Positions 1 through 64,000 of a stretch of DNA of 64,000 nucleotides are shown here, piece by piece (the first letter of the stretch is position 1; every line of letters starts with the position of its first letter). The stretch comes from an uncultured Candidatus Peribacteria bacterium (GTDB lineage: Bacteria > Patescibacteriota > Gracilibacteria > BD1-5 > UBA2023): NCBI GenBank assembly GCA_964482035.1, contig CAYZVC010000004.1, positions 19,572 through 83,571 of the forward strand, written 5' to 3'. A program made the translations under genes and the position numbers. The notes under the pieces are model-generated. The model had not been told where the DNA came from, did no database searches, and saw only the letters and a program-made list of their open reading frames with translations.

Positions 1-115
1 TTTCCACCGGAGTTCGGGAATCGGGGAAATATTTGAGGAACGCGAACGAAACCACCGCGGAGGCGGCAATGGAAAACACGACGGTGGACGCGACGATCGC
101 CTTTACGGGAGACAT
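1..115 (-). CDS. 5' end of a membrane/secreted protein (only the N-terminal signal-anchor is in the window)
   Basis: Complement ATG at 113-115 followed by MSPVKAIVASTVVFSIAASAVVSFAFLKYFPDSRTPVE, a hydrophobic N-terminal helix; open to the window edge. Confidence 0.4.
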   Translation of the reverse strand, partial: MSPVKAIVASTVVFSIAASAVVSFAFLKYFPDSRTPVE

Positions 116-248
116 GCGGAATCGGGTTAAGTACGATGCCGGATTATACGGCTTCGAAAACGCGGAGCAAGGGCAACCTTGAAAATGCCCGTTTCTTGCC
201 TCGCGTACGCGCATGTGGTACCATGTGCGAAACGTATCACACCGATCC

Positions 249-3200
249 ATGGCGGAAATACCGACGTACGAACCTTCCGAAAAACGCGACTCGCGTTCGG
301 CGGCCGACAAACCGGCGGCGGCCGAGTCTTTGCCGAAGGGCGAGGCGAGAGAAAAAACGCGCCAAGTCCCCGAAAGTCTCCGCGAAGCGTTCAAATCCGC
401 GGCGGACGTGGCGATTTCCCGCGTCATGGCGAAAGTGGCCTCGAAAGAAGGCATGCCGACGGACGCGAAAACCTACCGGGCCGAAGTCGTCGCCGTGCTC
501 CGCGAAACGGACGCGAAGCTTCCGGAAGGACACGCCCTCAAAGGAACCACCGACCTCATCGTCGAAAATTTCCTCACCCCGGAAGAAAAAGGCGCCGAAC
601 TCATCCGCACGCTGCTCGAAAAAGGGTATTCCGTCGCGAAAGAAGGGAAAAAACTCAACGCCGGACCGAAAGAATTCGACGCCGGAATGGGCGCCATCCG
701 TTCGACTTTGGGATTTTCGATAGACCTCGCGAAAAAGAAGCCGGAGAAAATCGGCGAATTCATGAACGAAATCAAGAAGGTCCCCGAAGCGGCGAACCTT
801 CTTTCCCGTTTCCCGGACATGGAGACGGTGCTCGTGAAAATCCTCCCGGAAATCGCGAAAAACGTCGACAAGCAGACGTTCCTTGCGGCTTTCGATTCGT
901 TCGCTTCCGAAATCAAGGCCCCCGCGCTTTCGCTTCTGAGCGGAAAGGAGCTGGGCGACAAGGAACGCGGCGAAGTGGCGATGAAAATCGTCCACGAATC
1001 GGCGCGTCTCGTAGGATCGGCGCTCACGAAAGAAACCGTGAAGAGCGGAATCGAAGGCATCTCGACGCTTTCCGCCGTGAAGAACAATCCCGTCGCTTCG
1101 AAACTCGTCGAGCTCGTGAAGCGCCCGGAACTCTCCGACGACGACCGTTTCGCGCTCGTGAAAAAAGCGAACGAAGGCATCGCGGTCTTTACGAAAAATC
1201 CCCCGAACGAAGCCGAGCTGGAAAAATACGCGAATTCGGCGGCGGAACTGGTATCTTCCCTTTCGAACAAGCTCCCCAAAGCGCTCGTGACGGACGTCAT
1301 GGCCTCGATGTTCCGTCCGGAAGACGGCGGCAACGGGAAATGAGTGGAAATCAAAAGCAAAACCGAACTCGTGAAGCTTCTTTTCGACAATAAGTCGAAG
1401 CTTTTCGAAGCGCTCAAAAGGTACGCCCTGGGAGAACTCTCGACCATGAAGGACGTCGTGCGTTTCGTCGTCGAAGAAAGGGTTCTCGAGCAGAACATCG
1501 GCATGGCTAAGGGCGAACTCGTCGAACGCCTGAAAAAGGTCATCGAAATCGATCTCGCCTCGTTCTCGGAAAAACTCAAAGCGAAACTGGCTTCCGAAAT
1601 GGCGAAACCCGAATCGAAGGCCGTGTCGGAGGTTCCGCAGAACGCGGCGTTGGGAGACGCCCTTTCGAACAAGGTGCTCGCCGAAATGGCCGCTACGTTC
1701 TTCTGACCCGACCGCCCCGCGAGGATTACGAAAGAACTTTTGGCCGACCGGGCTTCCAAGGCGGCGGCCGCGGCCATCGATTCGATGCCGGGCAATACGG
1801 TGAAAATCTGAGGCGCGGAAGTTCCGAAACACGCCCTGAAAACCGCAGTAACGGGTATCGAATTCCGCCTCTTCGCGGCCGACGCTTTCGGCAAGCTCGC
1901 CGGAGAAGCCGGAAAAAGCGGCACTTCGATGGAGAAGCTCGCTTCGATCGTCGCGGAAATCATGAAGGATCCGCTCGGGAACAAATACGTGGGCGAACGC
2001 ACCCGCCAATTCGCTATCGACGCGTTTTATGCGATGCCGGCCACCGACATCGCGGAAACCGTATCGAACAACCTCGAGACTTCCGGGCTCGCGAAATACC
2101 TGAAAAAAACCGACGGGACCGTCGCGGTCGACAGACGCGACGTGACGGAAATGGTCAACATCCTCCGCGACGGGGAAATCCTTCCGAAAGAGACGCTCAC
2201 GAAAATCCTTTCCAAAGAAAATCTCACGCCGCCGGTGAACGTATTGAAAATCGTGGGCGACCTCTTGAAATCGCTTTCCAAGGAACAGCTCACGCTCCTT
2301 TTGGACAAGGCTTCCGCAAAGCGTCCCGACGGTTCGCCGAGCCTTCTGGAAAAAGGCCTGTCGATCGAACGCAAAGGCGATGGAAAACCCATGTCGAAAG
2401 AAGACGCGGTAAAAATCGCGGAGCTCGTCATGGAAACGGTCGGAAAAACCGATGCCGATTCGAGAAAACCGCTTTTCGAAGCGATCGGAGCGAACCCGAA
2501 ATCCGCGGAATACGGACTGTCGTTCTTCAAAGCGTTCGGAAAAGAACGCGTACTGAAACTCGTCTCCGAACATTCGGACGTTTTCGGTGAAATTTTTTCC
2601 TGAAAAATCGATCCGAAACGGGATGCGGCGAAACTCCTCCCCGTCGCGGTCGACGTCGCGTACGCTTCGGACTTCGCGTCGGATTCGAAAATGATCGCCG
2701 AAACGAAGGCCGCGTTCCCGGAGATGAAAGGACTCCTCGAAATGGAAGTTTTCTGAGGAACCGCCGTCGACCATCTCGATCGGATCCGCCATGCGGTCCC
2801 CAAAGAAAAAGCGCTCGCGTTCGTAAACGCCCATTCGGCGGAACTCGCTTCCCTCGCGGCGAATTTCGACAAAGCCAAGGCCGCGAAGCTCTGAGCCGAA
2901 TTCCTCCTCTCGGTAGACAAGGACAAGCTCGCGGTACTCGCCGATCCTTCGAAACTTACCGGTGCGGAAAAACTCGCCGCCGAGAAACTTCCGCAGGTGC
3001 GCGACGTTCTCGAATCGTTCAAAAAGGAAAGCGTCACCACTCCCGACGGAAAAACCGTTTCGCGCCTCGACGCGCTCATCGAAGCCGGAACCGCAGCGAC
3101 CGAAGGCAAAATCGACAAGAAGCGCGCGGATTTTCTCGCCGGAGAAGCATTCGAACTCGTTTCGCGCCTCTTGCCCGCTTTGGGCGACTGGAAGATGCCG

Positions 3201-3404
3201 GAAGGCGGAGGCGAAACGCCGGAAGCCGCCAAGAAATTCAAAAAGGAATTCGTTTCCAACAATCTGGGCTTCGTCATCGGACAAGCGCTCCCCTACCTTT
3301 TCGGACGCCCAACGGAAAAAATAGTGGGCGCCTATTTCGCGGACGCCGGAAATAAGGAAGCGTTCATAAAGACGCTTTCGGCGACGCTGGTAGGAAAATC
3401 TTAA
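249..3404 (+). CDS. large (about 1050 aa) Ala/Lys/Glu-rich helical hypothetical protein, no domain recognised
   Basis: ORF-track pieces 213-1343, 1344-1706, 1929-2603 and 2997-3404 share one frame and are joined by in-frame TGA (1341, 1704, 1809, 2601 and two more); ends TAA 3402-3404; start is ATG 249 or 213. Confidence 0.7.
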
Positions 3405-3423
3405 AGCGTTACCGACTTCGGAA

Positions 3424-5082
3424 ATGGTTCGAATCACGAAAAAGGCGAAGGATCTGGGAACCTTCGCAGCAAAGAAGATCACGAAACTCGAATCTTCGGA
3501 AATCAGCGTTTTCTGATGGGTCGCGGCGTTCGCAGCGGTAGTTTGCGTACGAAACTTTTTGGAAACCTGGTCGACGGGAAACTACGGCATGATGGCCTCG
3601 ACCGAACACGTCGTGACGAATTTCGTCTTTTACCACACCTTCCTCTCCTATCTTTTTCCGTTTCTCGGACTCGCGGCGATCGTTCGGATATTCACGGGAG
3701 AAAAGGCTTCGAAAATTCTCAATTTCGTCCTTGTTCTCTCCGCGATGATCTTCGTCGCGCCCACGGTCGACCTCGTCGTTCGGGCCTTATCGGACCATTC
3801 GACCCCCATCGTCTACGACCCCGTCACGGGCATCACGTCCATTAAGGATCTTTTGACGTACTGGCTCGATTTCGCGTTTTTCTGACCGTACGGAATCTTC
3901 TTCGGCGGGGACGTGAACGCCATGCGTTCGGGGCAGAACCTCGGAATCAGGGTGGAAGTGAACCTCATCCTCGCTATCGCGAGTTCGTACGTATTTTGGA
4001 AAACCCGCGACGCGGTAAGAACGATTGCCGCGTTCTTCGTCATGAACGCCGGATTCATGGTCTACGTTTCGTTCCCGATGTTCCTCTGAGTATTGGCATG
4101 AGCGTTTCCCACGTCCGAGAACGCGAGGATGTTTCCGGAAGCCATAGGCACCGGGCTGTGACCGAGCGATTTGGCGTACCTGCTTTCGGTGACCGCGCTT
4201 TCCGCGTATTTGCTCCGTTCGGTAAATTCGAAGAAATTCGACGCGCTTCTTTCGAACCTCAGGGCCGGCAGGGTCGCCAACGTTCTCATTCTCTACGTCT
4301 TCTGACTATTCCTCGGCTTTCAGACGGAAGGCTCGACATTCGGATGGACCGATATTTTCGACCCCATGGCCGTTGCCGTCGTCGCGCTCGCACTCGTGCT
4401 CGAATGGGCGTGCGCCGTCGGGCATAATGATTTGGAAGATGAGGAAGGCGACAAGCTCTCGATGTCGCACCGGCCGCTGCCCTCGGGCATGGTGGGCCGC
4501 GGGGAAATGGCCTCGTACGCGCTGCTCGCCGGCGCGGGAGCCCTGTATGCCGCCAATCTCGCCGGACATGCGGTTTTCGTCGCGGTGGCGTTTAAGATGG
4601 CGCTCCATTACCTCTATTCGGGCCGTCCGTTCCGACTGAAGGCGATTCCTTTGGTTTCCAATTTCGTATTGTCTCTCTCGTACCTTTTGACCGTACTTGC
4701 GGGATACCTTCTGGTATTCCCGAACGGGCTCGCGAATTTTCCGTCGTGAGCCGCCGCGCTCGTTCTCGTCACCTTCACGCTCGCAACGCCGTTCAAAGAC
4801 CTCAAGGACGTCGACGGGGACCGCAAGGTAGGGGTCCGGACGATTCCCACGCTTTTCTGACTCGAAAACGGCAAGCGAATAATAGCCGCCCTCTGATTCG
4901 CAGCGTTCGTTTGGATTCCTTTCGCCATGCCGGAATACGCTTCCCGGATTTGGATTCCTTCAATCGTTTCCGGCTTGGCGTTCGGCTGGGCGGTAACTCG
5001 AAAAAACTACGACGAACGCAAGGTTTTTTGGACCTACTACGCCTATGCCGCGACCTGCGCGCTCATCCTGATCCTGACCTAA
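3424..5082 (+). CDS. UbiA-family prenyltransferase with a long extra N-terminal membrane domain
   Basis: Single frame from ATG 3424 to TAA 5080-5082 through several in-frame TGAs; Asp-rich motifs NDLEDEEGD and KDLKDVDGDRKVGVRTIP; hydrophobic helices throughout. Confidence 0.8.
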
Positions 5083-5196: not shown

Positions 5197-6003
5197 CTAG
5201 TCGCGTATCCGGATCTTCTCTACCGACAAGCATTTCCCATCTTCGATTTCGACCAATACCGCATGCAGCGATCCGGGGCCGTCCGTAAGGGGTTCCGGTT
5301 TTTTAGAGAACATCGAAATGCCCGTGAGCATCGCCGGGAGCCGGCCTTCGAACTCTTGCCCGATGGCGCTGTGGAGCGGACCGGTCATGCCGACGTCGGC
5401 GATCATTCCGGTACCGGATTCGAGAACGTGTTCGTCATTGGTCTGCACGTGGGTATGGGTGCCGTACACGAACGTGGCGCGACCGGAAAGGTATTCGGCC
5501 ATGCAGTAGATTTCGGCGGTGGTTTCGCGGTGGAAATCCACGAGGATCGCGTCGAATTTTTCATTCGCGAACGAAGCGAGGATTTCGTCGGCCTTGAGGA
5601 ACGGGTTGTACACGTCGTCCTTCAAAAAGGTGGATGACATGAGATTGATGACGAGAACCTTTTTGCCGTTCTTTTCGATGACGCGGGTGCCCTTCCCCGG
5701 AATCGGGTATCACGGAACCTCGTAGTAGTTCGCCGGGCGGATCTGGATGGAATCGGGGTTGGCGAGTTCGTCGGCCAAATCCTTCACGTGGGAAAAAACG
5801 TGGTTTCCGCCAGTGAGGCAATCGAAACCGAGGTCCTTCATAAATGCGACGTGTTCGGGAACGGGCCCCTTGCCGCTGGTAATGTTCTCGCTGTTGGCAA
5901 TAACGAAATCCGGCGAAAAATCCTCACGGATTTTCGGAAGGTGCCGGGCGACGAGTTCGCGCCCCATGCGTCAGAAGACGTCTCAGAATATGAGGATTTT
6001 CAT
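5197..6003 (-). CDS. ymdB: YmdB-family metallophosphoesterase (2',3'-cyclic-nucleotide 2'-phosphodiesterase type)
   Basis: Pieces 5197-5640 and 5710-5967 are in frame; N-terminus MKILIF-G-DVF-G-RMGRE has both G encoded by TGA (5983-5985, 5971-5973); GNHVF motif; TAG stop. Confidence 0.85.
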
Positions 6004-8350: not shown

Positions 8351-9255
8351 CATTCCTCTCCGTCGCGCATGCCGCGAATTACCAGGAAATGATCGCCGGA
8401 GCGGCCGACGTAATCCGCGGCGGAACTTCAGGAAGGCCCCGTCCATTGGGATTCCTTCAGGTGGCGGGCGTTTCTCCGATAACGAAAATCGCGAGCGTCG
8501 CCGGAAACCTTCCGTCCGATCAGGCGGGAAATCCCATGGGGCTCATCAAAGATCCCAGCGATTCCGCGACGGCGACCGGATTCGTCGTCGACGGGAAAAC
8601 CATCGGCAACGTTACGAAAACCGTTTTTTCGAAAAGCTGTCTGGAAATCAAGAACGCCGGAGCGTGAAGCGCCGACGGAACGTACTCCATCGATCCCGAC
8701 GGCGAAGGATGAAACGCACCCATCCAAGCATATTGCGACATGACTACCGACGGCGGAGGATGGACGCTCACTTTCTACGCACCCTCGATGCCTTCGGACG
8801 GAAGCGCGGACCTTACGGCGAACCAAGTCGTCATCAAGGGATTGCCATTAAAGACCTATACGTCCGATTCGGCAACGTACCCCGTGCTTACCAACGGTAC
8901 GGTAAATTCCTATTCAGAAGTGCTCTTCAAATGAGGCAATTCAAGCTGGGTGGGCCAAAAAGGCGCATGGAGCCGATTCGCGACCTTTCCTTCGGGAACC
9001 ACTGCCATGAGCGTAACGTTCGACGGGGTGCTCAATGCCGACGGAAGTACGGCCCTTTACCATCATTCGAGGGGATGGACGACCGGAACCGTCAACCCCG
9101 CGACCGCGACGTTTTGAATCTGGGACGATGCCGGACAGAGCAACATCTGCTGAGGAAACGGTGTGCCGGGATGAAAGAACTGCCCGTATTTCGTACACAC
9201 CACGTACTCGTACCACTACGAAGTCGCTTCCCAAAGATGGCTCTTCGTTCGATAG
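7945..9255 (+). CDS. type IV pilin-like protein with a C-terminal fibrinogen-related (FReD-like) domain
   Basis: Prepilin signal RRLSG/FTLAELIVVITILAILA with Glu at +5; frame runs through 6 TGAs to TAG 9253-9255; SCLEIKNAGAGSADGTYSIDPDG...QAYCDMTTDGGGWTL matches the fibrinogen C-domain signature. Confidence 0.8.
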
Positions 9256-9265
9256 AACATACTTT

Positions 9266-9293
9266 TTGACAAAATCGTTTCGGTACGTATTTT
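9266..9293 (+). promoter_or_regulatory. sigma-70-like promoter (TTGACA - 16 nt - TATTTT)
   Basis: TTGACA at 9266-9271 and TATTTT at 9288-9293, upstream of an AAGGAG SD at 9317-9322. Confidence 0.35.
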
Positions 9294-9328
9294 ACACCAA
9301 TCAAAACCAATATAGAAAGGAGTCCGCG

Positions 9329-9709
9329 ATGCCGGCACCAAGATTTCCGCAAGAGCACCTCGCTTACGCAGACCTGGCGCTCCTCAGCTGTTGGGGCGTC
9401 AAAAGCCTGGAAAACTACACCCTCTCGGTCCAACTGCTCGAAATAGCCCGGACCTACGTCGAATGCCACTATCCGTGGATTGCCGAAGCGCTCGAAGCCG
9501 AAGACCAAAAAGTCTTCGCCAAAGCCTTCGACAGGCACGTGGAAACCCTCTCCAAGCACGGTTGGGGCGAATACGCGGCATCCGCCCTATACCACGCCCT
9601 CCGCGACTACGGTCCGATGCAAAAAGCCTTGCTGAAGCGTTTCCCCGACGCGAGCAAACATGACGCGAAATCCGTCGTGACGGCGTTCGTCAAGAACTGC
9701 CGCCCCTGA
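9329..9709 (+). CDS. hypothetical protein (126 aa) whose natural end is a TGA
   Basis: Strong SD AAGGAG 6 nt before ATG 9329; ORF closes at TGA 9707-9709, immediately followed by an intrinsic terminator; read as Gly it would run to TAG 9989-9991 across the terminator and antisense to yidD. Confidence 0.5.
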   Translation: MPAPRFPQEHLAYADLALLSCWGVKSLENYTLSVQLLEIARTYVECHYPWIAEALEAEDQKVFAKAFDRHVETLSKHGWGEYAASALYHALRDYGPMQKALLKRFPDASKHDAKSVVTAFVKNCRP

Positions 9710-9721: not shown

Positions 9722-9748
9722 AAAGCCCCGCTTACCGCGGGGCTTTTC
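9722..9748 (+). terminator. intrinsic terminator
   Basis: Stem AGCCCCGC / GCGGGGCT with loop TTACC, then a T-run. Confidence 0.7.
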
Positions 9749-13669: not shown

Positions 13670-14779
13670 TTAATCCGACTCAAACCCTGCCGAATAGGCA
13701 AAGGAAAATCGCCCCATCGAGAATCTATTTACGACCTCATCGGAGACATTTTGTCAAGCAATGATGAAATCTTTGTCGGCAACGCGTTTCAACACAAGAT
13801 CGGAGCGGTGCGGGTCGAGTTCGGAGAAAAGGTCGTCGAACAAGAGCACGAGCGGCTTACCGCCCTTTTCGATGAGAAAATCCGCGGCGATGAGCTTGAG
13901 GGCGTAGAGCAGGGATTTGTTCTCCCCTCTCGACAGGTAGTCTTCCGACCGGATCTCGCCGGAAGGCAGTACGACCGTAAGTCCGAAGTCGTCCAAGTGC
14001 GGGCCGACGTAGGTATGGCCGAGCACCACGTCGCGGTCGCGGTTTTTGGCGAGGTAGGCGGAAATGCTGCCTTCGACATCGGCTTCGTCGGTTTTGGTCT
14101 GGTAAACGAAGCGGACTTCGTATTTGCCGTCGAGGAGCGAGGAGATGTCGGAAGAGCGCGAGCGCACGTATTCGACGAAGCGCATCCTATAGCGGAAATA
14201 TTCGGCGGCTTTGGCGGTGAAAAGCGGATCCCATACGGAAAGATCGCCGGCCTTGGCCTCCCCTTCAGAAATCTTCTTGAGCAGGGCGTTGCGGTTCTTG
14301 AGGGCGGCGGAATAGTCTTTTTTCACTTTGGCGAACTCCGGAAACGCGAGGGAAACCGGCTCGTCTAAAAAGTCGCGGCGGAGCGAAGGGCCGAGATAGA
14401 GCACGTTCATCTCTATGGGCGAAAAGAGCATCGCCCGGACGGGAAGCTTGGAAAGGTAGTTCGCGCGCGAGACGTTTTCGCCCTGGATGGCGAACGAGAC
14501 GGCCTTCTTCTCGGTATCGCAGGAAATGCGGAACTCGTATTCGAGACCGGCGGGGTTTTCGAGCTTGGCGCGTACGAAAAACGCGCCCTCGAAACCGGCG
14601 GCGAGCTCGGTGGCGCGCTTGCCGGGCGGGAGGGCGCCGTTCAAAGCGAAATAGGCGGCTTCGAGAAAATTGGTTTTTCACGAACCGTTGGGACCGCAAA
14701 CGGCGGTCCGCCCGTGGAGGGGAACCGCCGTTTCGGAGTGGTTTTTAAACCGGTAGCAGGCGATCTCTTTGACCCGCAT
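13670..14779 (-). CDS. recF: DNA replication and repair protein RecF
   Basis: MRVKEIACYRFKNH...VCGPNGS-G-KTNFLEA with the Walker A Gly encoded by TGA 14678-14680; second TGA at 13754-13756, then 27 more codons to TAA 13670-13672; ATG overlaps the gatC stop (TAATG). Confidence 0.85.
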
Positions 14780-16583: not shown

Positions 16584-18926
16584 ATGGACAAAAGAAATCT
16601 CTCGGAATCCGACATTTGCTCAAAATTCATCACGCCGGCCCTTCATGAAGCCTCTTGGCAAGAATCCCAGATTCGCCGGGAGGTTTCTTTTACGAAAGGG
16701 CGGATTAAAGTGAAATGAAAAACCGTTTCTCGCGGGGAGACAAAGCGCGCGGATTACATCCTGCACCATGCGAACCATCTCCCGATAGCCATCGTAGAAG
16801 CCAAAGACAACTGCCATTCCATCGGGGACGGTATGCAACAGGCTCTCGGTTATGCAGAAACGCTCGACATTCCGTTCGTGTATTCATCAAACGGCGACGG
16901 CTTCCTTGAGCACGATAGGACGAAAAAAACCTGAACGGTCGAACGGGAACTTCGCATGGACGAATTCCCCACTCCCGACGAGCTGTACCGCCGTTACCGG
17001 GTCGCCAAGGGGTTCGATGAAGAAATCGAAAAAACGGTAATGGAGCCGTATTACGAGGACGTTAGCGGAAAGGGTCCGCGCTATTATCAGCAAATCGCCA
17101 TCAACAGAACAATCGAAGCAGTCGCGAAAGAACAGGATCGTATCCTCCTCGTCATGGCGACCGGTACTGGAAAAACGTACACCGCTTTCCAAATCATCTG
17201 GCGTCTCTAGAAAGCGCGCAAGAAAAAACGAATCCTCTTCCTTGCGGACAGGAACATCCTCGTCGACCAGACGATTACGAACGATTTTAAACCGTTCGGC
17301 GATAAAATGGCTAAGATCGAGAACCGCAAAGTAGATACTTCGTACGAAATCTACCTCGCCCTCTACCAAGGCCTCACCGGCGGTGAAGAGGACAAGAACG
17401 TCTTCAAACAGTTCTCGCCGGGCTTTTTCGACCTCATCGTCATCGACGAGTGCCACAGGGGCAGCGCGAGGGAAAACAGCGAATGGCGGGCCATTCTCGA
17501 CTATTTCAAAGGCGCTACACAAATCGGTCTTACCGCGACCCCGAAAGAGACTGAAGACGTATCGACGCATACGTATTTTGGAGACCCTATTTATACATAT
17601 TCGCTCAAACAGGGCATAGAAGACGGTTTTCTTGCACCGTACAAAGTGGTTCGCGTCTGAATGGATGTGGACGAAGGCTGGAGACCTTACAAAGGGCAGC
17701 TCGATTATTACGGCGCCGAGATTCCGGACAAAGTATACGAGCTTGGGGATTTCGACCGGAACATCGTCATCCGGGAGCGTACCGAAGCCGTTGCCAAGAA
17801 AATCAGCGAGTATCTCAAAGCGACAGACCGATATTCAAAAACCATCGTCTTTTGCGTGGATATCGACCATGCCGAACGTATGCGCCAAGCCCTCGTGAAC
17901 GAAAACGCGGACGAGGTCGCGAAGAATCCGAAATACGTAATGCGCATCACGGGCGATAACGAAGAAGGCAAAATGGAGCTCGACAATTTCATCGATCCGA
18001 AAGAACGATACCCCGTCATCGCCACGACCTCGAAACTCCTCACCACCTGAGTGGACGCGCAGACGTGCCGGGTTATCGCCCTCGATGCCATCATCAACTC
18101 GATGACGGAATTCAAGCAGATCATCGGTCGCGGAACCCGCATCAACGAAACCTACGGCAAATACTACTTCACCATCCTCGACTTCCGTAAGGCGACGAAC
18201 AAGTTCGCGGATCCAGATTTCGACGGCGAACCCGTCGTAATCTACAAACCCAAACCCGACGAACCGGTCGACGGCGGCGATGTCTGAACCGTTTGAGACG
18301 AAGACGATGGAAACGGCGGATGAACCGTAATCATCGGGGACGGTACGGGAGGATGAGCCGGTGGAGGACAGAAGAAGATCATGGTCCGCTGAGTGCCCGT
18401 GAGTGTTTCCCAGGAACGGGTCCAATACATCGGACCGGACGGCAAACTCATTACCGAGAGTCTCAAGGACTACTCGAAAAAGAACATCCTCTCGGCATAT
18501 GCGAGCCTAGACGATTTCCTGAACGAATGGAACCACGTCGAACAGAAGCTCGCCGTAGTATCCGCATTGGAAGAAAAGGGCGTATTCTTCGAGGACATGC
18601 AAAAGGAAGTCGGACAAGATTACGATCCGTTCGACATGGTGTGCCACCTGGCGTACGACCGTCCGCCGCTCACTCGCAAACAACGGGCGGACAAAGCGAA
18701 AAAATCCGACTATTTCTCCAAATACGGGGAACAGGCGAAAGAAGTGTTGAACATGCTTCTCGAAACATATGCGGACCGTTGAATCGGTGCGATAGAAGAC
18801 ATGGGCATTCTCACCGTCAGTCCGCTCTCGCGCCTTGGAAAACCCGTAGAAATCGTCACGCTTTTCGGAGGAAAGGCCCAATACAAGGCAGCACTTAGAG
18901 AGCTCGAAGCCGCTATTTACCAATAA
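16584..18926 (+). CDS. hsdR: type I restriction enzyme R subunit (HsdR), carrying one in-frame TAG (possible pseudogene)
   Basis: Pieces 16473-16718, 16956-17210, 17307-17660, 17661-18050, 18051-18287 and 18393-18782 are all in one frame; PD-(D/E)x[29 protein letters not shown] (TGA), EcoEI-R-like C-terminus; about 10 TGA=Gly; TAG at 17208-17210 in [20 protein letters not shown]. Confidence 0.85.
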
Positions 18927-21695: not shown

Positions 21696-21701
21696 TGCCA
21701 T

Positions 21702-23690: not shown

Positions 23691-23712
23691 TTCATCAATA
23701 ACCGCTTATCAA

Positions 23713-24036
23713 ATGGCAACAAAAAAGGAAATGGTGGACAAGGCACTATCCCATGTAAAGAATTTCGAATCGATCAAAGGACTTGTAACCATCGTGGAAC
23801 TGAAGGATGGAAAAACTGTAGTCAACCAGCGCGCCATGTATCGATGATCGAAATACACTAAAAGGGATTGGTGTTTCAGAACAGTCAGTGCAGTTATCAG
23901 AAATAATCCGTTCGACGAGACTCGTCCGAGCGTTTTCCAGATGAATCTGGACATTTCTAATATCAAAAGTCTAAGGGTGATTGCTAGCGATCAAGAGATT
24001 CGAGGCAATTCAACCGGCATCTCTGAGCGTAAGTAA
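23713..24036 (+). CDS. small hypothetical protein (107 aa)
   Basis: ATG 23713 to TAA 24034-24036 with one in-frame TGA (23845-23847); missed by the ORF track because it is split; competes with antisense ORF 23709-23966. Confidence 0.4.
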
Positions 24037-43714: not shown

Positions 43715-43740
43715 GGAAAAACCCCCGTTCGAACGGGGGT
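43715..43740 (-). terminator. intrinsic terminator
   Basis: CCCCCGTTC/GAACGGGGG palindrome followed (minus strand) by TTTTT. Confidence 0.7.
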
Positions 43741-43750
43741 CGATTTCACT

Positions 43751-47630: not shown

Positions 47631-50600
47631 ATGCGCGACGGAAAGAACGGGAATGACCGAATCGAAACCGAATGAAAAAACGGAACTCCGGAATGGGGTT
47701 CCGACGTTTTGTCGACGAACGTATCGCGACACGTCACATGAACCCTCGAATTGGAAAAGGGCGCCGTTTCGGCGATTTTCGAATCGGCGCTCGACCGTGT
47801 GGCCGAAACCTGAGGCAAGTACCGCCGCATCTGGCTGGTCCGCCATTTCGACTACGAAGACTCGGAAGAAGCGCGGGAATACGTGAAACGATCCAAAGAA
47901 GACAAGAGCAAGATGTCGAAGGAAAAGATCGACGAACTCAACGAACTCAGCAAAAAAGTGCGTGCGAACGTGAACGATCCGTTCATCCAGAAGATCCTCT
48001 TATGATCCCTCAGGGGACGGCCGGACAAAACGAAAACGTCGGTGTATCTGGATATCGAAGCAAGCATCGCGACCCGAAACAAGATGACCTACGAGTGGGT
48101 AGCGAACTCGGGAGAACTTAAGGATTGGCTCGTTACCAAAAGATTCAAGATCACGACGGAAAAGGTCGACGACAATGGGGAAAAGAACTTTCGGGCATTT
48201 TCGGAAATCAAGAACATACTGGACGATTGGACGAGCGACAAAGACGGAGGCGACGGCGTGATTTTTGGCAACAGGACGCCTTCTCACGCGTTCTGAATTC
48301 GCGTCTGACGGCCGTGTTACAGCGAAAAGGACCATACCGACCAAATGGAGCGTCTCGGTTACGATTTTTTGGACATTGAAAAAGCGACGGGGAAACCCGT
48401 TCTCATCCAAAATGGAAAAACGCTCAGGGTCACGTTGGAAAACCTTGACGGAATCGAAAAAGCCATTCTTGACACCGGTGACGATACCGGGAGGAAAGCG
48501 AAGATTTCGAAAGCTTTTTCGGAATTTCCGCTCATCATGCTTCAGGAAGCCATCAACGAAGTGATTGCGGAACTGGAGAAGACGGATCGTGCGCAATACT
48601 TGGCCGTCTTGCGCTCGCTTTGCGAATGGAAAGACGCCAAAGGGAAACACGATCCCGAACTGCAAGCGTACGTTTTCGAACGGCTCATCGAAAACTGATT
48701 TCCATGGGAAACCCTGCTGCAATGGGAATGGTCGACGGGCGCGCTCGAATGGATGGCGACCAAAGGGTACCGCGAAATGGTCATCCGGTATTTTTGAGAT
48801 TCCGAAGAAGGGCCGACGGGCGATCTCGGACCTTTTGCCAAATCGATCAACGTCAAGGGAATGAAGGAACTCTTCGCGGACGCGTACGAATACTGGAAGA
48901 TTCGACAAAAGCAGAAGCGGTCGGTAGATCCGGCCATCCGCGCAGGCAAGAAGGGAGCTATCGCCGAAAGGTACGCGCATACCGCACGGTGAGACGGGAC
49001 CGAACGTCGGGAATACCTTAACTTCGAAGGGATCGCGAAACTCTCGACCGTACGTAACGTCGTGGTCCTCGGTACGATCGGGGAAGGAAAAAGCCTTTGG
49101 CTCTGCGAATTCGCCAAGTCCGCGATTGTCAAAGGCCAAAAAATCCGCTTTTACGAAGCACGGGACCTTTTGCCCAAATCTTTCCAGCGAGGAGGAAATA
49201 TTTTCGAAGAATTCGAAAATTTTCCGGAAGCGCTTTTCTGCGTAGACGGGATGGATGAAATCCGCGATCCGAAAACGCGCGACGAAATCAAATCGGCAAT
49301 CGATTCTCTCGGAAAACGTTTCATCATAGGATCGAGGCCCTCGGAATACTCCGAACACTCCGAAAAACATGCCACCGTCCGTCTCGCGGGAATGGAGCTC
49401 GACGATTTTCTCGAAGAGCGGTTCGACGATGAACGGGATAGGGAAAAAGTACGGATCCTCATTAGGGGCATGCGGTTTTCGGAAAGCGCACAATCATCGC
49501 AAACGGAAGCTGACCCGCTTCTGTTGGCTTTCGCTTGCATGCTTGCCGAGAACGGCGACCGCGCGGATTCTCCCGATTTCCGAAATAGGGCGGATTTGTA
49601 CGAAAACGCGGCGAAATACGTCCTTTCGAAACATTCCAAGGATTCCAAAGGACAACAGGATTACGATCCGTCCAGAGACGTGGACGGATGGATGAAAGAA
49701 TTGGGCAAGCGCGCTTACGAGAAATTTTCGGGAACCGAAAAAATCGGGGCGGACCGATATTCCGATACGCATTTAGGACTTCTCTACCGAAAAGAAGGGA
49801 CCGAAAAATACGAATTCGCGCACCACTCGTTTTACGAGTATTTCCTCGCGAGGCATTTTGCGGAAAATCCGGAATCATTCGAACGGGGAGGCCGTGAAGG
49901 ATTGCCGAACGGCTTAACCTCGGAACGGAACTCGCTTATCTACCTTGCCGAAATCCTTGCGAATTCCGGAAAAATCGAAGAGCTTGCCGAATTTCTTAAA
50001 AAGCTGCGTCGGTTTCCGGTAGAAAAAAAGCGAAAAGGTACGGATTCGGTTTCGGTCGGACGGACGCCGTTCATTACCTGACTGGAAATTCTGCACGCCC
50101 TTCCGAATGAGTTCTTAGGACTCCCCGAGATTCGTAAGATTCGGAAAAAGTACGAAAATGACGTATCCGAAATCGACGCGACTTGGATCGGAGAAAACTA
50201 CCAGGAAATATTGGAGTTCGCCAAGAGGACTGACCGTGCGGATTCGCCTCTTATCCTAAGGACGATCGACGTCTTCAAATCAGCCATCGAACCCCGAATA
50301 GCGAGCGAGGTGGGCGCCGACGATCCCATGTCCGGAATCACCGAATTGTGCAAGGCCCTCGCATCAATGGGAACCCCGTTGTCCGTATCGACGGCCGATA
50401 AGATCGAGAACGTGGTCCGAAAACTCAGACTGTCGCTTTTCATGCCGATTCCCGATTCCGAGGAAGATTTCCTGGCTCTTGAGGCGGATCTCAGAAGAGA
50501 AGACGTCCAAGGGGTATTTTGAAAATTCCACAAAGGGAAGAAGGATTTCGAATTCCATTTGGCAGCAATCGGCACCCAGTCATCCATGAGCGCGATCGAA

Positions 50601-50993
50601 TCACGCATAAAATACATGTCGGTTGACGACATGGCAAGAATGTACGAAACGATCGCCGGAGGACCGGTTTCGCGATTGTCCTTGGAAATCGCGGAAAAGG
50701 GCGCTCAAAAGATGATGGAAGGCGGGCATTACACGCCGGCACGCTGGATTTACCGCTCCATATTCGAAATGGGGACGAGAAAAGCCAAATTGATTGCCTT
50801 GAAATGAGCCAGAAGCCTGGAAGGAAAATGCAGGGATCCTTGGAAAATCTGGGCCAATTCCACTTTGTTCGACTACCGCGCCCCACGAAGGCTCCCTCCG
50901 GTCACGGACCTCTCGAAACTTCTCGTTTTGGAGGATCGTTGGAGCACAACGATCCGACGCATTTCGAAAATGAAAAAGCGCTTCTTGTGATAA
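47631..50993 (+). CDS. NACHT-type STAND NTPase (1120 aa), Avs/bNACHT-like candidate defence protein
   Basis: Pieces 48042-48296, 48345-48698, 49062-50081, 50211-50522 and 50559-50807 share one frame, joined by about 13 TGAs; Walker A VVLGTIGEGKS, Walker B LFCVDGMDE, FAHHSFYEYFLARH; ends ...RFL-G-TAA (50991-50993). Confidence 0.8.
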
Positions 50994-51050: not shown

Positions 51051-51131
51051 TCCGGTTTTTTCTTTTCGAGCCGAAGTACAAATGCCGTGCAAGTCGCTCA
51101 TTAACGTCAACGCTCTCGAAAGGAGAACACC

Positions 51132-51248
51132 ATGATTGCCAACGCACTGCTCATCGGGCTGGGCCTCGTCATCGGCTTCATCATCTGCGCCGTTTGGCTG
51201 GCCAAGAAGGTTTTTCGCGGCCTCGGTAAATTGAAAGACAAGTTCTGA
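51132..51248 (+). CDS. 38-aa single-TM micro-protein, apparent TGA stop
   Basis: AAAGGAG 6 nt before the ATG; MIANALLIGLGLVIGFIICAVWLAKKVFRGLGKLKDKF; TGA 51246-51248 sits just before the next SD. Confidence 0.5.
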   Translation: MIANALLIGLGLVIGFIICAVWLAKKVFRGLGKLKDKF

Positions 51249-51262
51249 AAGGAGAACCGGAC

Positions 51263-51790
51263 ATGAGAATCATTACCTACACGGTCATCAGTTTTATTGC
51301 GGCCTTGAGCGCGTGGGGATTCCTCACGTCCTGGTTCTTTGCCGCAGTAATCACGACGACCTTCGCGTACCCGTACTTTTTCGATACGCTGGTTTCGACC
51401 GGCATCGACCCTTGGACGGCAAGGACGCTCTCCGCGCTCTTCGCCCTCGGAACGCTCTTCGCGCTCCGGGAATGGGGACGAGGATCGAAAGCGAGGGCCG
51501 CCGTAATCGGCACCTTGCTGTTCGTCGCGATATTCGGCATAGCGAGATTCCAAACCGACGGATTCAACTTCGATCCGAAAACCGGAAAGAATCTCGTGAA
51601 CGTCGTACGTACTCCGGATGGTGGAAAAACGGTTCCCAAGCATTGGGCATACGATCCCGCCTCCGGAAACAAAACCGAAGCCGCCACGCCTGAAAACGTA
51701 CGGCACATCGGAAAACCCAACGGTTCCGAATCCGGAGACGGACAAGAACTTCGTCAATTGCAACGAATCCTGCGTTCGCAAAACCCCTGA
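51263..51790 (+). CDS. 175-aa membrane protein (about 4 TM plus a soluble tail), apparent TGA stop
   Basis: AAGGAG 8 nt before the ATG; intact in the ORF track; TGA 51788-51790 lies 10 nt before the next SD. Confidence 0.55.
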   Translation: MRIITYTVISFIAALSAWGFLTSWFFAAVITTTFAYPYFFDTLVSTGIDPWTARTLSALFALGTLFALREWGRGSKARAAVIGTLLFVAIFGIARFQTDGFNFDPKTGKNLVNVVRTPDGGKTVPKHWAYDPASGNKTEAATPENVRHIGKPNGSESGDGQELRQLQRILRSQNP

Positions 51791-51809
51791 ACTTCCATCG
51801 GAGGCAATC

Positions 51810-51959
51810 ATGCAATACCAAACCAATACCAAAAAGAAGGCGGCCATTCTGGTCATCTTCGGCCTTATGCTTACCGCATTCGGCATCCTGCTGGGAAAGA
51901 AACCCGAAGCGATCGACGCCATCAAGGCAAAAATCGCGGAACGTTTTCCTTCCAAGTAA
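51810..51959 (+). CDS. 49-aa single-TM micro-protein
   Basis: GGAGG 5 nt before the ATG; MQYQTNTKKKAAILVIFGLMLTAFGILLGKK...; TAA stop. Confidence 0.5.
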   Translation: MQYQTNTKKKAAILVIFGLMLTAFGILLGKKPEAIDAIKAKIAERFPSK

Positions 51960-52019
51960 TCCCCAATGGGCGGACGCCATCCATAACCGTCCGCCCGCTT
52001 TCCGTAAGAGGAGGCCGCC

Positions 52020-52127
52020 ATGCGGAAAACTCTCAAAGAAATCGCCCTCGAAGCTTTTATCGGAGGGATTACCAACGCCATTTACACCGGACTCCGGAGA
52101 TGGCTCATCAAATACGTAAAAGATTGA
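52020..52127 (+). CDS. 35-aa micro-protein, apparent TGA stop (or the N-terminus of the next gene if TGA=Gly)
   Basis: GGAGG 5 nt before the ATG; TGA 52125-52127 is in frame with ATG 52140. Confidence 0.4.
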   Translation: MRKTLKEIALEAFIGGITNAIYTGLRRWLIKYVKD

Positions 52128-52139
52128 AAGGAGTACGAA

Positions 52140-52661
52140 ATGTGGGGAAAAATCAAACCCGAATTGGCGGTTGCCATCATAATCATGGCCGTTGTCTTGG
52201 TGGGCTCCATGGTCGCCCGGAACGAGCCGCTCGTTCTCGCCGAATATTTCCCGCATTTCGCTCCGGAATCGGCAAAAACTCGACTGAAGCTCAAGAAGCT
52301 GGAAGAACTCGGAAATCAGATGCTGAAAGAATACGGCGATCTTGAAAAGGACCTCGAAATCCAGACGACGAAGCTTCAGTACCTTTTGGACGAAGTCGAA
52401 AGAAGGAATTCCGACAAAAGGAAAAAATCGGAAGTCGAGGAGGCGCGGGACTTCTACGAAAAACGCGCGATTGAGTCCTACAGGAAAACAATCCGAGAAA
52501 TACGGAAACGGATAGTCGCATTGAAATTGGCAAGCGCCGAGAAAGCGTTCATGGTGCGCGAACTCGAAGCCGAATTGAAAATGCAGACGATTCGAGAACG
52601 TAACGAAATCCTCGTACGGAAAATCGACGAAGCCGTTCCCAATACGGCTGCGAAAAAGTAG
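52140..52661 (+). CDS. 173-aa N-terminally anchored coiled-coil protein
   Basis: AAGGAG 6 nt before the ATG; TM helix ELAVAIIIMAVVLVGSMV, then K/E-rich heptads; TAG stop. Confidence 0.6.
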   Translation: MWGKIKPELAVAIIIMAVVLVGSMVARNEPLVLAEYFPHFAPESAKTRLKLKKLEELGNQMLKEYGDLEKDLEIQTTKLQYLLDEVERRNSDKRKKSEVEEARDFYEKRAIESYRKTIREIRKRIVALKLASAEKAFMVRELEAELKMQTIRERNEILVRKIDEAVPNTAAKK

Positions 52662-52728
52662 TAACGGCGACGGACTCGACGTGACGCGACCGGAAAATCC
52701 GGTTCACGACACGCGGACTCGACATACG

Positions 52729-52776: not shown

Positions 52777-53466
52777 CTAAGTTCCGCACTTCCCTACGAA
52801 CGCCCGGAAAATCGGCGCGTGAGATTCGAGACACTCCGGATGCCATTGAACCCCGTACACGGGAAGTTCGCGGTGTTGGATGGCTTCGACCGCGCCGTCT
52901 TCGGCGCTTTTGGCTATGATTTCCAACTCATCGCCCAATACGTCGATCGCCTGGTGGTGGATGGAATTGACCGGAATCCGGGATTCGTCGAAAGCTACCG
53001 AAAGGAATCCTCCGTCCCCGCAAATCACCACTTCGTGAATCTTTTCGTGCCGTTCGTCCGGGCGGAAATGGAACTCGCTATTGGAAAGGTTCTGGATGAG
53101 CGAACCCCCGAAATACACGTTGATGAGCTGCATGCCCTTGCAAATTCAGAGCACGGGCTTTTCGGCGGCGATGACGGCTTTCATGAACCGGAAAAGGAAC
53201 CCGTCATGTTTGGGAACGAACTCCACCGCTCCGCAAAGCTCGGCTCCGTAGAGCGCGGGGTAGATATCGGCCCCGCCGGGAAATACGAAACCGTCGAGAT
53301 CCTCGACGTACGTCGAAACCGCTTCGGCATTGCAGGGCACGATATAGGCGACTCATCCGGCCTTTTCGATGGCGGTAACGTACCGGAACGTTACGCGATT
53401 GGTTTCCCCATGGGTTTCCTGCCGGTAATCCGATAGGATTCCGACGCGCACTCTCTTTCTTTCCAT
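52777..53466 (-). CDS. class I glutamine amidotransferase / gamma-glutamyl-GABA hydrolase (PuuD, peptidase C26) family
   Basis: Pieces 52777-53133 and 53146-53340, plus upstream, are in frame; catalytic G-ICKGMQLINV with the G encoded by TGA 53146-53148; HHQAI and VQWHPE motifs. Confidence 0.85.
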
Positions 53467-59411: not shown

Positions 59412-59422
59412 CCTGAGGGATG

Positions 59423-59460
59423 AAGCCCCGGCCCGAAAGAACGCCGGGGCTTTACTTTTT
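59423..59460 (+). terminator. intrinsic terminator
   Basis: AAGCCCCGGC / GCCGGGGCTT stem followed by a T-run. Confidence 0.7.
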
Positions 59461-59512
59461 CCCATTCGTCATTACGGTACGTCCGTCAAAAACACAAACG
59501 AAAGGGGATGGA

Positions 59513-60406
59513 ATGTCCTACTCAACCAAAAAATGGCTTTTCGCCGCGCTCGTCGCGATTGTCATGACCGCATTCGACGCGAAGGCCGACTATAAGGAAC
59601 TCTGGTCCCTCGGGGCGATCGATCCCGATTACGTCGCCGCGAAAAAATGCGGACCCGACGCCTTCGTGGTCATATCGTGGAACGTCGCGAATTTCGGCGG
59701 GAACGAACCGGCGGAACGGATCGAATCGTTGGCGAAAATCCTCCGATATTCCGAACTCGCGTTCGTACTCGAAGTCTCCGGAAGCTTCCAAGGTCCCAAG
59801 GCCGCGGCCATGCTCCAAGAAGAACTCATGCGCAAAGGGGCGAGATGGCGTATCGCCGTTTCCGATGCGACGACTGCGGAACCCGCCGGAAAAAACACTT
59901 CCGAACGGATGGTCGCGTATTGGAAGCAGCACGCCGTTTCCATGGGCGCGCTGAATTCGGGGCTCGTATCCGAACTCGCTCCCACGGTAGCGCGCGAACC
60001 CTACCGTATCGAAGCTACTACTTCTAAGCTCGGCAAGGTCGAATTCTATTCGTTCCACGCCAGGCCGGAAGGCTCCGGAGCGACGGAAGAAGCGGCCTTG
60101 GTCGCGGCCCATCTCGGCTCGAAGCGCGCTTCTTCCGAAATCGGGACCGTCGTACTGGGTGACTTCAACCTCTCCAAAACCCAACTCGACAAAGCCTTCG
60201 TTCCGCGCGGTTTCCAAGCGGGCGTATCTGGCGCGACGAGCCTGCGCAAAAACGGCGACGGCGTTTCCCGGAAACGCGACAACGCGTATTTCCGCAACGT
60301 TTCGGTCTGCGAAGCCGGACGAATCCGTACCGACAAAATCTTCGGCACGAATTCCGTCAACGTCAGCGACCACGTTCCCATCTATCTCGCCATCCAGGCG
60401 AACTGA
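59513..60406 (+). CDS. secreted endonuclease/exonuclease/phosphatase (DNase I-like) family protein, apparent TGA stop
   Basis: Signal peptide; ISWNVANFG and GDFN motifs, and SDHVPIYLAIQAN at the very C-terminus; TGA 60404-60406 followed by a terminator. Confidence 0.75.
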   Translation: MSYSTKKWLFAALVAIVMTAFDAKADYKELWSLGAIDPDYVAAKKCGPDAFVVISWNVANFGGNEPAERIESLAKILRYSELAFVLEVSGSFQGPKAAAMLQEELMRKGARWRIAVSDATTAEPAGKNTSERMVAYWKQHAVSMGALNSGLVSELAPTVAREPYRIEATTSKLGKVEFYSFHARPEGSGATEEAALVAAHLGSKRASSEIGTVVLGDFNLSKTQLDKAFVPRGFQAGVSGATSLRKNGDGVSRKRDNAYFRNVSVCEAGRIRTDKIFGTNSVNVSDHVPIYLAIQAN

Positions 60407-60410: not shown

Positions 60411-60438
60411 CGCCCCCGCTTCGAGCGGGGGTTTTCTT
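60411..60438 (+). terminator. intrinsic terminator
   Basis: CCCCCGC-TTCGA-GCGGGGG followed by TTTTCTT. Confidence 0.8.
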
Positions 60439-62351: not shown

Positions 62352-62381
62352 AAAATCCCCGGGACGTCCCGGGGATTTTTC
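62352..62381 (+). terminator. intrinsic terminator
   Basis: AATCCCCGGG-ACGT-CCCGGGGATT followed by TTT. Confidence 0.75.
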
Positions 62382-62451
62382 TGACTTTTTCGTCACGTTC
62401 GGTACAATCTTTCCGTCATACCGGGTGCGACCGCACGAATTATTCAAAAAC

Positions 62452-63021
62452 ATGACCGACACCGCCAAGATCGAGGAAGCGGCGAAATCATTCAACTCTG
62501 GCGACCGACGCTCGTTCGGTACCGTTTTCGACGCGCTTTCCGAAGATATTTTCCGATACGTCGGATACCGCGTGGAAGATCCGCTCGAACGTGAAGAAAT
62601 CGTCTCCGACGTCTTCTTCAAAATCCTCAAGAGTGGAAAACTCCCCGAAGAATGGGAATCCGTCCGCCGTTTCGCCTACGCCGTCGCGAAAAACGCCGTC
62701 ATCGACCGCTACCGTTCGAAAAAGTTCACCGACGATCTCGACGACGCCGATTCGATGGGAAAGATCAGCCACAGCGAAAACCATTCGGCCAATATCGACG
62801 ACCGCGCGACCGTCGAAAAAATCCTCGGCTACCTCGACACCGTGAATCCCGAATACAAAGAAATCCTCATTCTCAGGATTTGGGACGACCTCGCCTACGA
62901 AGACATCTCGCAGATTACCGGAAAATCCGTCGACAACTGCAAAAAGATCGTCTCGCGGATGCTCGAAAACGTACGTTCCAACGTGGCGTACCTGTTTTTC
63001 TTCGCGCTCCTCATCCGATAA
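62452..63021 (+). CDS. ECF-type sigma-70 family RNA polymerase sigma factor
   Basis: Region 2 (IVSDVFFKILK...FAYAVAKNAVIDRYR) and region 4 HTH (YKEILILRIWDDLAYEDISQITGKSVDNCKKIVSR). Confidence 0.85.
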   Translation: MTDTAKIEEAAKSFNSGDRRSFGTVFDALSEDIFRYVGYRVEDPLEREEIVSDVFFKILKSGKLPEEWESVRRFAYAVAKNAVIDRYRSKKFTDDLDDADSMGKISHSENHSANIDDRATVEKILGYLDTVNPEYKEILILRIWDDLAYEDISQITGKSVDNCKKIVSRMLENVRSNVAYLFFFALLIR

Positions 63022-63031
63022 ATTTCCGAAC

Positions 63032-64000
63032 ATGAAAATCCACGACGCTCGGAAAATCCTCTCCGAATTGAAAGACGTCCACGGCTTCGTTTCCGCCGAC
63101 GATGAAAAGACCCTCGACCTCATTTTCAAAATGGTCGCGGGCAAACCGAAGGTCGAAGCCGATCCGCGGTTTTTGGAAAATCTCAGGAGCCGGCTGCTTC
63201 TCGAAGCCTCGGCACCGGCGGCTTCGCCATGGTGGAAAACCTGGCAGTCCTTCGCGAAGTTCCTTTCGGTTCCGGTAGCGCTTGCGGGAATCGCGGCCAT
63301 CGCCGGCACGCTCGGGTTCTTGGACATCGGAAAACAACCGGAACGAACCCGGGAACCTTCCGTTCCGGTAACGGCCGTATCCACCGATAGCGACAAGGCC
63401 GCACCGGTTGCCGTCGCTCCGGATAACGAAACGCCGTCGGGCGAAACCGCACGGGCTCCGGCCGGAGCCACCGCCCCGAAGACGAACCCCCTCCCGTCCC
63501 TCAGGGGCACGGAAACCGTGAAAACCGACGCGGGTACGAAACCGGTGAATCCGTCGAAAAGCGAAGCGGCCGACCGTACGCTCGAAAGCGTCGATTCGGG
63601 AATCTCCAACATCGTCGGAGACGCTGCCGAAAGCACGACCACTGCCATTCCGATGGCGGATTCGGCGGACTTTTCCGCCCCGATGGCCATGACTTCGCCC
63701 GCCGGCGGAAGCGCCCTGAAAATGGCCAACCCCTCGAACGTCGCGGTTACCGAATACCGCTATTCCTTCGCGGGCGAACTTCCGAAAATCTCGACGGCGC
63801 TCCCGACGTACGAGCGCGTTCCGAAATCCCCGCTCCCGGCTTTCTCCAAGGCCGCCTGAATGGGGATGACGGTTTCCCAAGACGCGGAAAACGGATATTC
63901 GACCGTCATGCGCGATTACGAGAAATGGCCGGAAACGCCGTGCCAAGGCGATTCGTGCGGAAAGGTCTTGAAAGAAAGCGACGTTCCCGCGGACTCCGTC
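63032..64000 (+). CDS. single-pass membrane protein downstream of the ECF sigma (putative anti-sigma factor), runs off the window
   Basis: Short cytoplasmic N-terminus, TM helix FLSVPVALAGIAAIAGTLGFL, Pro/Ala/Thr-rich linker; continues through TGA 63857-63859 to the window end. Confidence 0.55.

Follow-up and report, generated by a model that had tools for sequence, protein, structure and literature searches.

The DNA analyzed here is a 64,000-nucleotide stretch (the window, by which we mean this whole stretch; C4:19572-83571, where C4 is contig CAYZVC010000004.1) of an uncultured bacterium, and it almost certainly belongs to a BD1-5/Gracilibacteria-type genome that uses NCBI translation table 25, in which UGA encodes glycine. 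The code variant is itself already known, and the recoding is ancestral in the order to which this organism belongs. The genome is a metagenome-assembled genome (MAG) of 1.63 Mb in 20 contigs, with a completeness of 98.85% and a contamination of 0.77%. Its GC content is 55% overall, 55–57% in the four large contigs, and 54% in the window.

High GC content produces long open stretches in all six frames, and the length of an open reading frame (ORF) alone is therefore no proof of a gene. Because all six frames are full of such stretches at 54–57% GC, we fixed genes by Pfam matches on table-25 translations combined with a self-trained codon model; the codon caller is weak on a low-GC island within the window, where genes were placed by Pfam. 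In the resulting set of 36 curated window genes, 23 contain a total of 128 in-frame TGA codons and 35 end on TAA or TAG. Genome-wide, 1,693 in-frame TGA codons were found in 575 of 954 selected ORFs (4 per 1000 codons). An initial annotation of the window, which had proposed the glycine code, put the number of genes split by TGA above 30; with weaker ORFs included, ~27–30 window genes carry TGA, which comes near that figure but is not clearly above it.

Residues opposite in-frame TGA

Genes with TGA in recognizable motifs are given here, with x marking the position of a TGA codon.

5200-6003, minus strand: ymdB-like phosphoesterase gene (PF13277, 9e-73), with TGA at 5983-5985, 5971-5973, and 5710-5712.
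13673-14779, minus strand: recF (PF02463), with TGA at 14678-14680 (the Walker A glycine) and 13754-13756.
16584-18926, plus strand: hsdR of the EcoEI type, with ResIII and EcoEI_R_C domains spanning the breaks; 10 in-frame TGA, including 18048-18050 (helicase motif VI).
20373-21695, plus strand: hsdS (PF01420), with 10 in-frame TGA (VRLxEI, NSTGTxTIxR).
28046-28609, minus strand: GNAT acetyltransferase gene (PF13302 and PF00583), with 4 TGA, including 28232-28234 in GLxTAL.
42839-43696, minus strand: alpha/beta hydrolase gene (PF12146 and PF00561), with TGA at 43250 and 42983; GGN encodes the elbow glycine (GxSxG).
52780-53466, minus strand: peptidase C26/class-I amidotransferase gene (PF07722, 1.6e-49), with TGA at 53146-53148 (xICKGMQ) and 53353-53355.

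The in-frame TGA codons of RecF (14678-14680), HsdR (18048-18050), YmdB (5983 and 5971), the C26 protein (53146-53148), the GNAT protein (28232), and the HsdS motifs lie exactly where the initial annotation had placed them. The hydrolase was misread, however: the glycine in W-G-RSLGG that had been assigned to TGA comes from a normal GGN codon, with the TGA 11 codons upstream, at 43250 (VARxVPPRKIVVWGRSLGG).

To read the residue opposite each TGA, we masked the codon as X and aligned the translations with structure homologues from standard-code organisms in the PDB. X7 and X11 of YmdB, at its metal site, are opposite glycine in 4b2o and 1t70, X34 of RecF is opposite the glycine of GxxxxGK(S/T) in 5z67, and LLTTxVDA of HsdR matches LLTTGVDA of 3h1t, with glycine at X279. 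In the C26 protein, X38 is opposite glycine and X107 is opposite alanine or glycine (3fij and 7d4r). Residues other than glycine were found at two variable sites, where RecF X342 aligns with histidine and HsdR X149 with isoleucine. We also compared the ORFs of 150 kb of E. coli K-12 DNA with six-frame translations of the present genome in which TGA was masked, and removed overlapping wrong-frame matches. Glycine was opposite TGA at 22 of 29 sites (76%), compared to 61–76% for GGN codons and a glycine background of 8% (P = 6e-19), and neither tryptophan nor cysteine was opposite TGA at any of the 29. The proposal that TGA falls on conserved glycines was thus borne out, both in the structure homologues of YmdB, RecF, HsdR, and the C26 protein and, at the same rate as for GGN codons, in the E. 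coli comparison. All 61 other codons in this comparison peak on their standard residue. CGA, CGG, AGA, and AGG are all read as arginine, which rules out the additional reassignments that we considered (CGG or CGA to tryptophan, and AGG); some Gracilibacteria, unlike this organism, are predicted to read CGG as tryptophan.

Comparisons among close relatives gave a similar picture. Against 419 kb of congener sequence, 242 TGA sites corresponded to 131 GGN and 20 TGA codons (151/242), and tryptophan did not rank among the top residues. An alignment of YmdB orthologues of six family members shows TGA and GGN replacing each other at 25 columns (44 TGA, 93 GGN, and 38 other codons), and all of these orthologues stop at one common position, on TAA or TAG. 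As judged from the E. coli comparison, the match of TGA to glycine is far beyond chance.

Decoding machinery, lineage, and rival codes

ARAGORN detected a 79-nt tRNA with anticodon UCA at C3:9845-9923, on another contig, 25 nt upstream of tRNA-Gly(GCC). Its acceptor stem (GCGGGGG/CCCCCGC), U73, and CCA agree with the other glycine tRNAs of the genome, and it carries the glycine identity set G1:C72, C2:G71, G3:C70, and U73, the rule used by Shulgina and Eddy (PMC8629427). It scores 43.4 bits against Rfam RF00005, as an ordinary tRNA; ARAGORN labels it 'SeC' from its anticodon. The sole tRNA-Trp of the genome has anticodon CCA, and the acceptor stem and U73 of tRNA(UCA) are unlike those of this tRNA. 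The only protein in the genome with a GGQ motif/RF-1 domain is release factor 1 (RF1), which scores 466 bits with the prfA model (cut-off 423). The best match to prfB, the gene for release factor 2 (RF2), reached 277 bits (cut-off 370) and fell on the prfA locus itself, and we conclude that prfB is absent. Neither ArfB nor a second GGQ factor was found in the genome; selA was not found in it either, and SelB was not searched for. A transfer-messenger RNA (tmRNA) is present. Both checks suggested by the initial annotation, for a tRNA with a UCA anticodon and for the absence of prfB, thus turned out as it had anticipated, with prfA present and glycine identity elements on the tRNA.

In the mechanism that we propose, a dedicated tRNA(UCA) bearing the identity set of glycyl-tRNA synthetase (GlyRS) would decode UGA as glycine, loss of RF2 would leave no competitor for UGA, and RF1 would terminate at UAA and UAG, with the remaining codons standard. 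We infer the charging of tRNA(UCA) by GlyRS and the actual insertion of glycine from the codon match, the tRNA gene, and the absence of RF2. RF1 carries a PET motif in place of PAT or PVT, which we considered as a mark of altered specificity and rejected: relatives have A, V, S, L, K, E, or D at the middle position, with variation there whether or not RF2 is present, and some low-GC members of the order have PET as well.

The organism was placed by using one window gene.

39886-41370, plus strand: metG, encoding methionyl-tRNA synthetase (MetRS; PF09334), without TGA.

MetRS is 96% identical to that of one unclassified Patescibacteria MAG, and the best named relatives are Candidatus Gracilibacteria MAGs (55–59%). 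This placement, together with the tRNA(UCA) and the lack of RF2 that the order shares, agrees with the initial assignment to the Gracilibacteria code. Of 151 genomes sampled from the class, 112 have RF2; it is missing in all 15 genomes of this order and in two other families, with most other families having it. Within the order, the 79-nt tRNA occurs at full length in 39 of 41 genomes and in every one of the 19 genera sampled, and all 12 loci checked have the anticodon TCA. In RF2-less relatives, prfA itself contains 0–17 in-frame TGA codons (at least one in 16 of 17), some of them at invariant glycines (xVHRVQR, QxRVHTS), whereas none was found in prfA of RF2-bearing families of the class (prfA loci of relatives L156-L176). 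In-frame TGA in prfA is thus a clean marker of the code boundary. Because tRNA(UCA) and RF2 loss are common to the order, the recoding dates to its ancestry and the genome belongs to the known table-25 lineage, with no new event.

The code in which UGA is glycine was described for Gracilibacteria (BD1-5) and Absconditabacteria (SR1) by Campbell 2013 and Rinke 2013 (both cited in PMC8629427); the table-25 lineage is also covered by Hanke 2014 (PMC4032931) and, as GTDB class JAEDAM01, in PMC13695967. Glycine at UGA, the identity set of tRNA-Gly(UCA), loss of RF2, and UAA and UAG as stops are all shared with that lineage. The genome differs from it in its larger size, in a measurable share of gene ends on TGA, and in the GC content of its genus, which is 53–59% compared to 0.21-0.53 reported for recoded lineages (PMC8629427). 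Other genera of the order have 24–42% GC. TGA accounts for only about 3–5% of glycine codons here, compared to 20–77% in lower-GC relatives, and is lacking from the genes for ribosomal proteins, EF-Tu, EF-G, and RNA polymerase. The genus is thus the GC-rich extreme of the lineage, and TGA is correspondingly a rare glycine codon there.

We regard it as extremely improbable that the genome instead uses table 4, in which TGA encodes tryptophan, as in Mycoplasmatales and several insect endosymbionts. The hallmarks of table 4 (Mycoplasmatales, Hodgkinia, Zinderia, Nasuia, Stammera) likewise include capture of UGA, RF2 loss, and a tRNA with anticodon UCA, and Hodgkinia shows that a UGA change can persist at high GC. 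These organisms are unrelated to the lineage studied here, however, and the residue is glycine: tryptophan was opposite none of the 29 TGA sites compared with E. coli and was not a top residue at the 242 congener sites, and tRNA(UCA) has a glycine-type acceptor stem and U73, unlike tRNA-Trp(CCA). Least probable of all is a standard code in which the TGA codons mark selenocysteine or stem from sequencing errors or from lesions in pseudogenes. The 'SeC' label of the tRNA and one real nonsense codon, a TAG in hsdR described below, speak for this reading, but it is difficult to reconcile with 1,693 in-frame TGA codons, none opposite cysteine in the E. coli comparison, with a tRNA of 79 nt that fits the ordinary tRNA model in a genome in which no selA was found, with the interchange of TGA and GGN in orthologues, or with the absence of RF2 across the order.

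Some observations do weigh against UGA as a glycine codon. About 24–38% of TGA sites are opposite residues other than glycine, which we ascribe to ordinary variability because GGN codons behave alike. Since the genome is a MAG, it can never be fully excluded that a gene is missing only from the assembly, but completeness is 98.85% and relatives also lack RF2. Finally, 38 of 303 terminator-flanked gene ends are on TGA, compared to 265 on TAA or TAG, and glycine at UGA without RF2 does not explain these ends.

TGA at gene ends

The initial annotation held that gene ends use TAA or TAG. This is correct for ~87% of ends, but TGA occupies the stop slot at 60404, 9707, 51246, and 51788 in the window. 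We carried out a genome-wide census with our own hairpin and frame heuristics, using sites where a hairpin and T-run follow a clear coding frame. Among 338 such terminator-like sites, the stop-like codon was TAA at 184, TAG at 81, and only TGA at 38, and there was none at 35. TGA was present at 52% of the sites without TAA and TAG, compared to 7% expected if the DNA were coding and 21% if it were random, and control codons occurred as expected. The median distance to the hairpin was 22.5 nt for TGA, 20 nt for TAA, and 23 nt for TAG. Read-through past the terminal TGA would run for 10–907 codons. Genes that end on TGA contain internal TGA at the usual rate (26 observed and 26.3 expected; 2.78 per 1000 codons, compared to 2.8 in genes ending on TAA or TAG). 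They are shorter and have lower codon scores (P = 2e-5), and an orthologue was found for 8% of them among the congener and E. coli sequences sampled, compared to 22% otherwise. Genome-wide, upstream of sites with a Shine-Dalgarno (SD) sequence and ATG, TGA (1.30-fold) and TAA (1.27-fold) are enriched to much the same degree, which is not informative about TGA ends.

The share of TGA ends rises with GC content. It is 12.5% in this genome (55% GC) and 29% in congener G173 (58% GC), where we counted 16 TAA, 19 TAG, and 14 TGA ends (14/49); low-GC relatives have mostly TAA ends. Orthologue comparisons gave a consistent result at a lower level: TGA was 2.4-fold enriched in C-terminal tails and stood opposite the TAA or TAG stop of the other genome in one or more genes of this genome and in one or more of the congener, for which a looser criterion gives as many as five. 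One such case lies outside the window at C4:147034-149074 on the minus strand, where a gene 85% identical to its congener orthologue has TGA exactly at the congener's stop (MLSWLK-x), and read-through would add ~325 codons.

Features that bear on TGA ends in the window are given here.

59420-60406, plus strand: endonuclease/exonuclease/phosphatase-family gene without internal TGA, whose coding signal ends on TGA 60404-60406.
60412-60432, plus strand: intrinsic terminator hairpin and T-run from the terminator scan, 6 nt past TGA 60404-60406.
9035-9709, plus strand: 224-codon ORF in which TGA 9707-9709 is the only stop-like codon before a hairpin at 9727-9745 plus TTTTCATT.
51132-51790, plus strand: two small membrane-protein ORFs of 38 and 175 codons, whose coding signal stops at TGA 51246-51248 and 51788-51790, each followed by an SD site and the next ATG.

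Five related lineages have the gene at 59420-60406 in conserved synteny; its terminal codon is TGA in four (62–89% identity) and TAA in the fifth, and the flanking bases vary. The hairpin that follows it is kept in all five, with two pairs preserved through changes on both sides. Read-through of the TGA would add 190 codons across a nitroreductase gene. The hairpin at 9727-9745 is not listed by the terminator scan. GC content at third codon positions drops from 0.79 to 0.39 across TGA 51246 and from 0.65 to 0.35 across TGA 51788, and the codon score turns negative; both codons are kept in two strain variants. These two ORFs are part of a block (51100-52700) of five ORFs that encode small proteins of membrane or coiled-coil type; the SD sites are strong, and the junction TGA-SD-ATG occurs three times. 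Table 25 would fuse ORFs 4 and 5 of the block (52020-52661) through TGA 52125. Homologue searches with the small ORFs of 51.1–52.7 kb returned only the ORFs themselves and near-identical strain variants, all of which keep the TGA codons, and neither congener has the block.

Among the causes that we weighed for TGA ends, the most likely, which we hold with a little more confidence than doubt, is erosion of stops under GC pressure: GC-biased mutation would convert TAA to TGA, UGA would always be glycine, and read-through or rescue by tmRNA would be tolerated in weakly selected genes. The rise of the TGA-end share with GC content and the predominance of TAA in low-GC relatives fit this explanation, as do the short length, low codon scores, and poor conservation of TGA-ended genes, the TGA codons found exactly at an orthologue's stop in both this genome and the congener, and the presence of tmRNA. 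Less readily accommodated is the frequency of TGA ends, which at about half that of TAG ends implies surprisingly weak counter-selection. A neutral glycine codon in a junk tail should also drift to GGN, whereas TGA or TAA has been kept across lineages at 59420-60406, and tagging by tmRNA would lead to the loss of proteins that purifying selection otherwise maintains.

An addition to table 25, in which UGA is glycine inside genes and also a position-dependent end-of-gene signal at a minority of them, mostly just upstream of intrinsic terminators, appears unlikely to us; release might then depend on context, for example, or take the non-stop route where the transcript ends. The excess of TGA at sites without TAA or TAG (52% compared to 7–21% expected), the equal spacing of TGA, TAA, and TAG from the hairpin, the normal rate of internal TGA in TGA-ended genes, the 14 of 49 ends in G173, and the terminal TGA of 59420-60406, kept in four lineages with TAA in the fifth amid variable flanks, speak for such a signal. 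The genome contains no factor to act on it, however, with RF1 as the sole GGQ protein and neither RF2 nor ArfB; the PET motif of RF1 is not special, being shared with low-GC relatives; the shortness, low codon scores, and few orthologues of TGA-ended genes fit weak selection; read-through lengths look random; and the census depends on our own heuristics. Less likely again is that TGA-ended genes are recent arrivals from standard-code donors (hosts or phages) that have kept their old stop. The block at 51.1–52.7 kb, with its standard-type punctuation (TGA, SD, ATG), its lack of homologues, and its absence from congeners, would suit such an origin, as would the ~0.4 Mb by which the genome exceeds those of its congeners. 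Import is nonetheless unfit as a general cause, because internal TGA density is uniform between TGA-ended and other genes, and synteny of the gene at 59420-60406 extends to five related lineages. Candidatus Providencia siddallii PSAC similarly has in-frame sense UGA while at least nine of its genes appear to end on UGA (PMC10540940, in which Blastocrithidia is also mentioned), but PSAC keeps prfB and has changed recently from table 11 to table 4, whereas RF2 is absent order-wide here and the reassignment is old.

Further window genes, public annotation, and implications

The remaining curated genes that we discuss are as follows.

3424-5082, plus strand: UbiA-family prenyltransferase gene (PF01040, 8.9e-25 on the table-25 translation), with 9 in-frame TGA.
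18944-20371, plus strand: hsdM (PF02384, 1.6e-74), without TGA.
21702-23690, plus strand: GHKL-type ATPase gene (PF13589) in the 41–43% GC island, with 14 in-frame TGA (21 per 1000 codons).
24718-25242, minus strand: DpnII/MboI-like restriction endonuclease gene (PF18742, 1.7e-44), with 6 in-frame TGA.
28869-30203, plus strand: pilin-like gene with an N_methyl motif and a glycine-rich tail, with 15 in-frame TGA.
47631-50993, plus strand: NTPase gene (1120 aa), with 13 in-frame TGA.

The NTPase gene ends on a tandem TGA-TAA (50988-50993), which table 25 reads as one extra glycine ahead of the real stop. In hsdR, an in-frame TAG at 17208-17210 (IIWRL*KARKK) splits the ResIII domain and is found in both the JGI and Logan assemblies; the HsdR restriction subunit is probably inactivated by this codon, whereas hsdM and hsdS look intact. 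We searched for further in-frame TAA or TAG breaks through split matches to a congener, but matches between conserved non-coding frames overwhelmed the result in DNA this rich in GC. ARAGORN also called a 69-nt tRNA-Phe(AAA) at 43715-43783 on the minus strand, overlapping an open frame just upstream of the alpha/beta hydrolase start. This call is probably a false positive, and a normal tRNA-Phe(GAA) is encoded on contig C1.

The island at 20500-26000 (41–43% GC) contains the hsdS, GHKL ATPase, and DpnII-like genes and has 21–33 TGA per 1000 codons. Because this density resembles that of lower-GC relatives in the order, it suggests that the island was acquired from another organism with TGA as glycine rather than from a standard-code donor. 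At 1.63 Mb, the genome is ~0.4 Mb above two congeners (~1.2 Mb) and is the largest among the sampled members of the order, as would be expected from a large amount of accessory DNA.

The nearest public record bears no label beyond 'Patescibacteria group bacterium'. DNA that is 100% identical is present in JGI 3300028826 and Logan SRR10823754, and the gene calls there use the standard code. As the initial annotation had warned for any standard-code treatment of this contig, those calls are badly fragmented: hsdR is in six pieces, recF is in two (296 and 33 aa), the DpnII-like gene is represented only by a 59-aa fragment, and hsdM is the only restriction-modification gene called intact. In a collection of 15 billion proteins, we did not find the full-length table-25 products of five genes, whereas the exact TGA-free MetRS and HsdM proteins are there. 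Public protein sets thus contain about 60% of the genes of this organism in truncated or split form, and re-calling with table 25 is warranted.

Two aspects of this genus are less textbook than the code itself. The reassignment has persisted at 55–59% GC with TGA as a rare glycine codon, and TGA is in the stop slot of a sizeable minority of genes (~1/8 of terminator-flanked genes here and more than 1/4 in the congener with 58% GC). In Blastocrithidia and some ciliates, eukaryotes that possess eRF1 and whose termination is linked to poly(A), a triplet can be sense inside genes and a stop at gene ends near the transcript 3′ end. To our knowledge, such context-dependent stop/sense codons have no known bacterial counterpart, and a dual role of UGA in this genus, if true, would provide one. 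If the TGA ends work, termination without RF2 needs explanation; if they do not, the genus would be an example of GC pressure eroding stops in a recoded genome.

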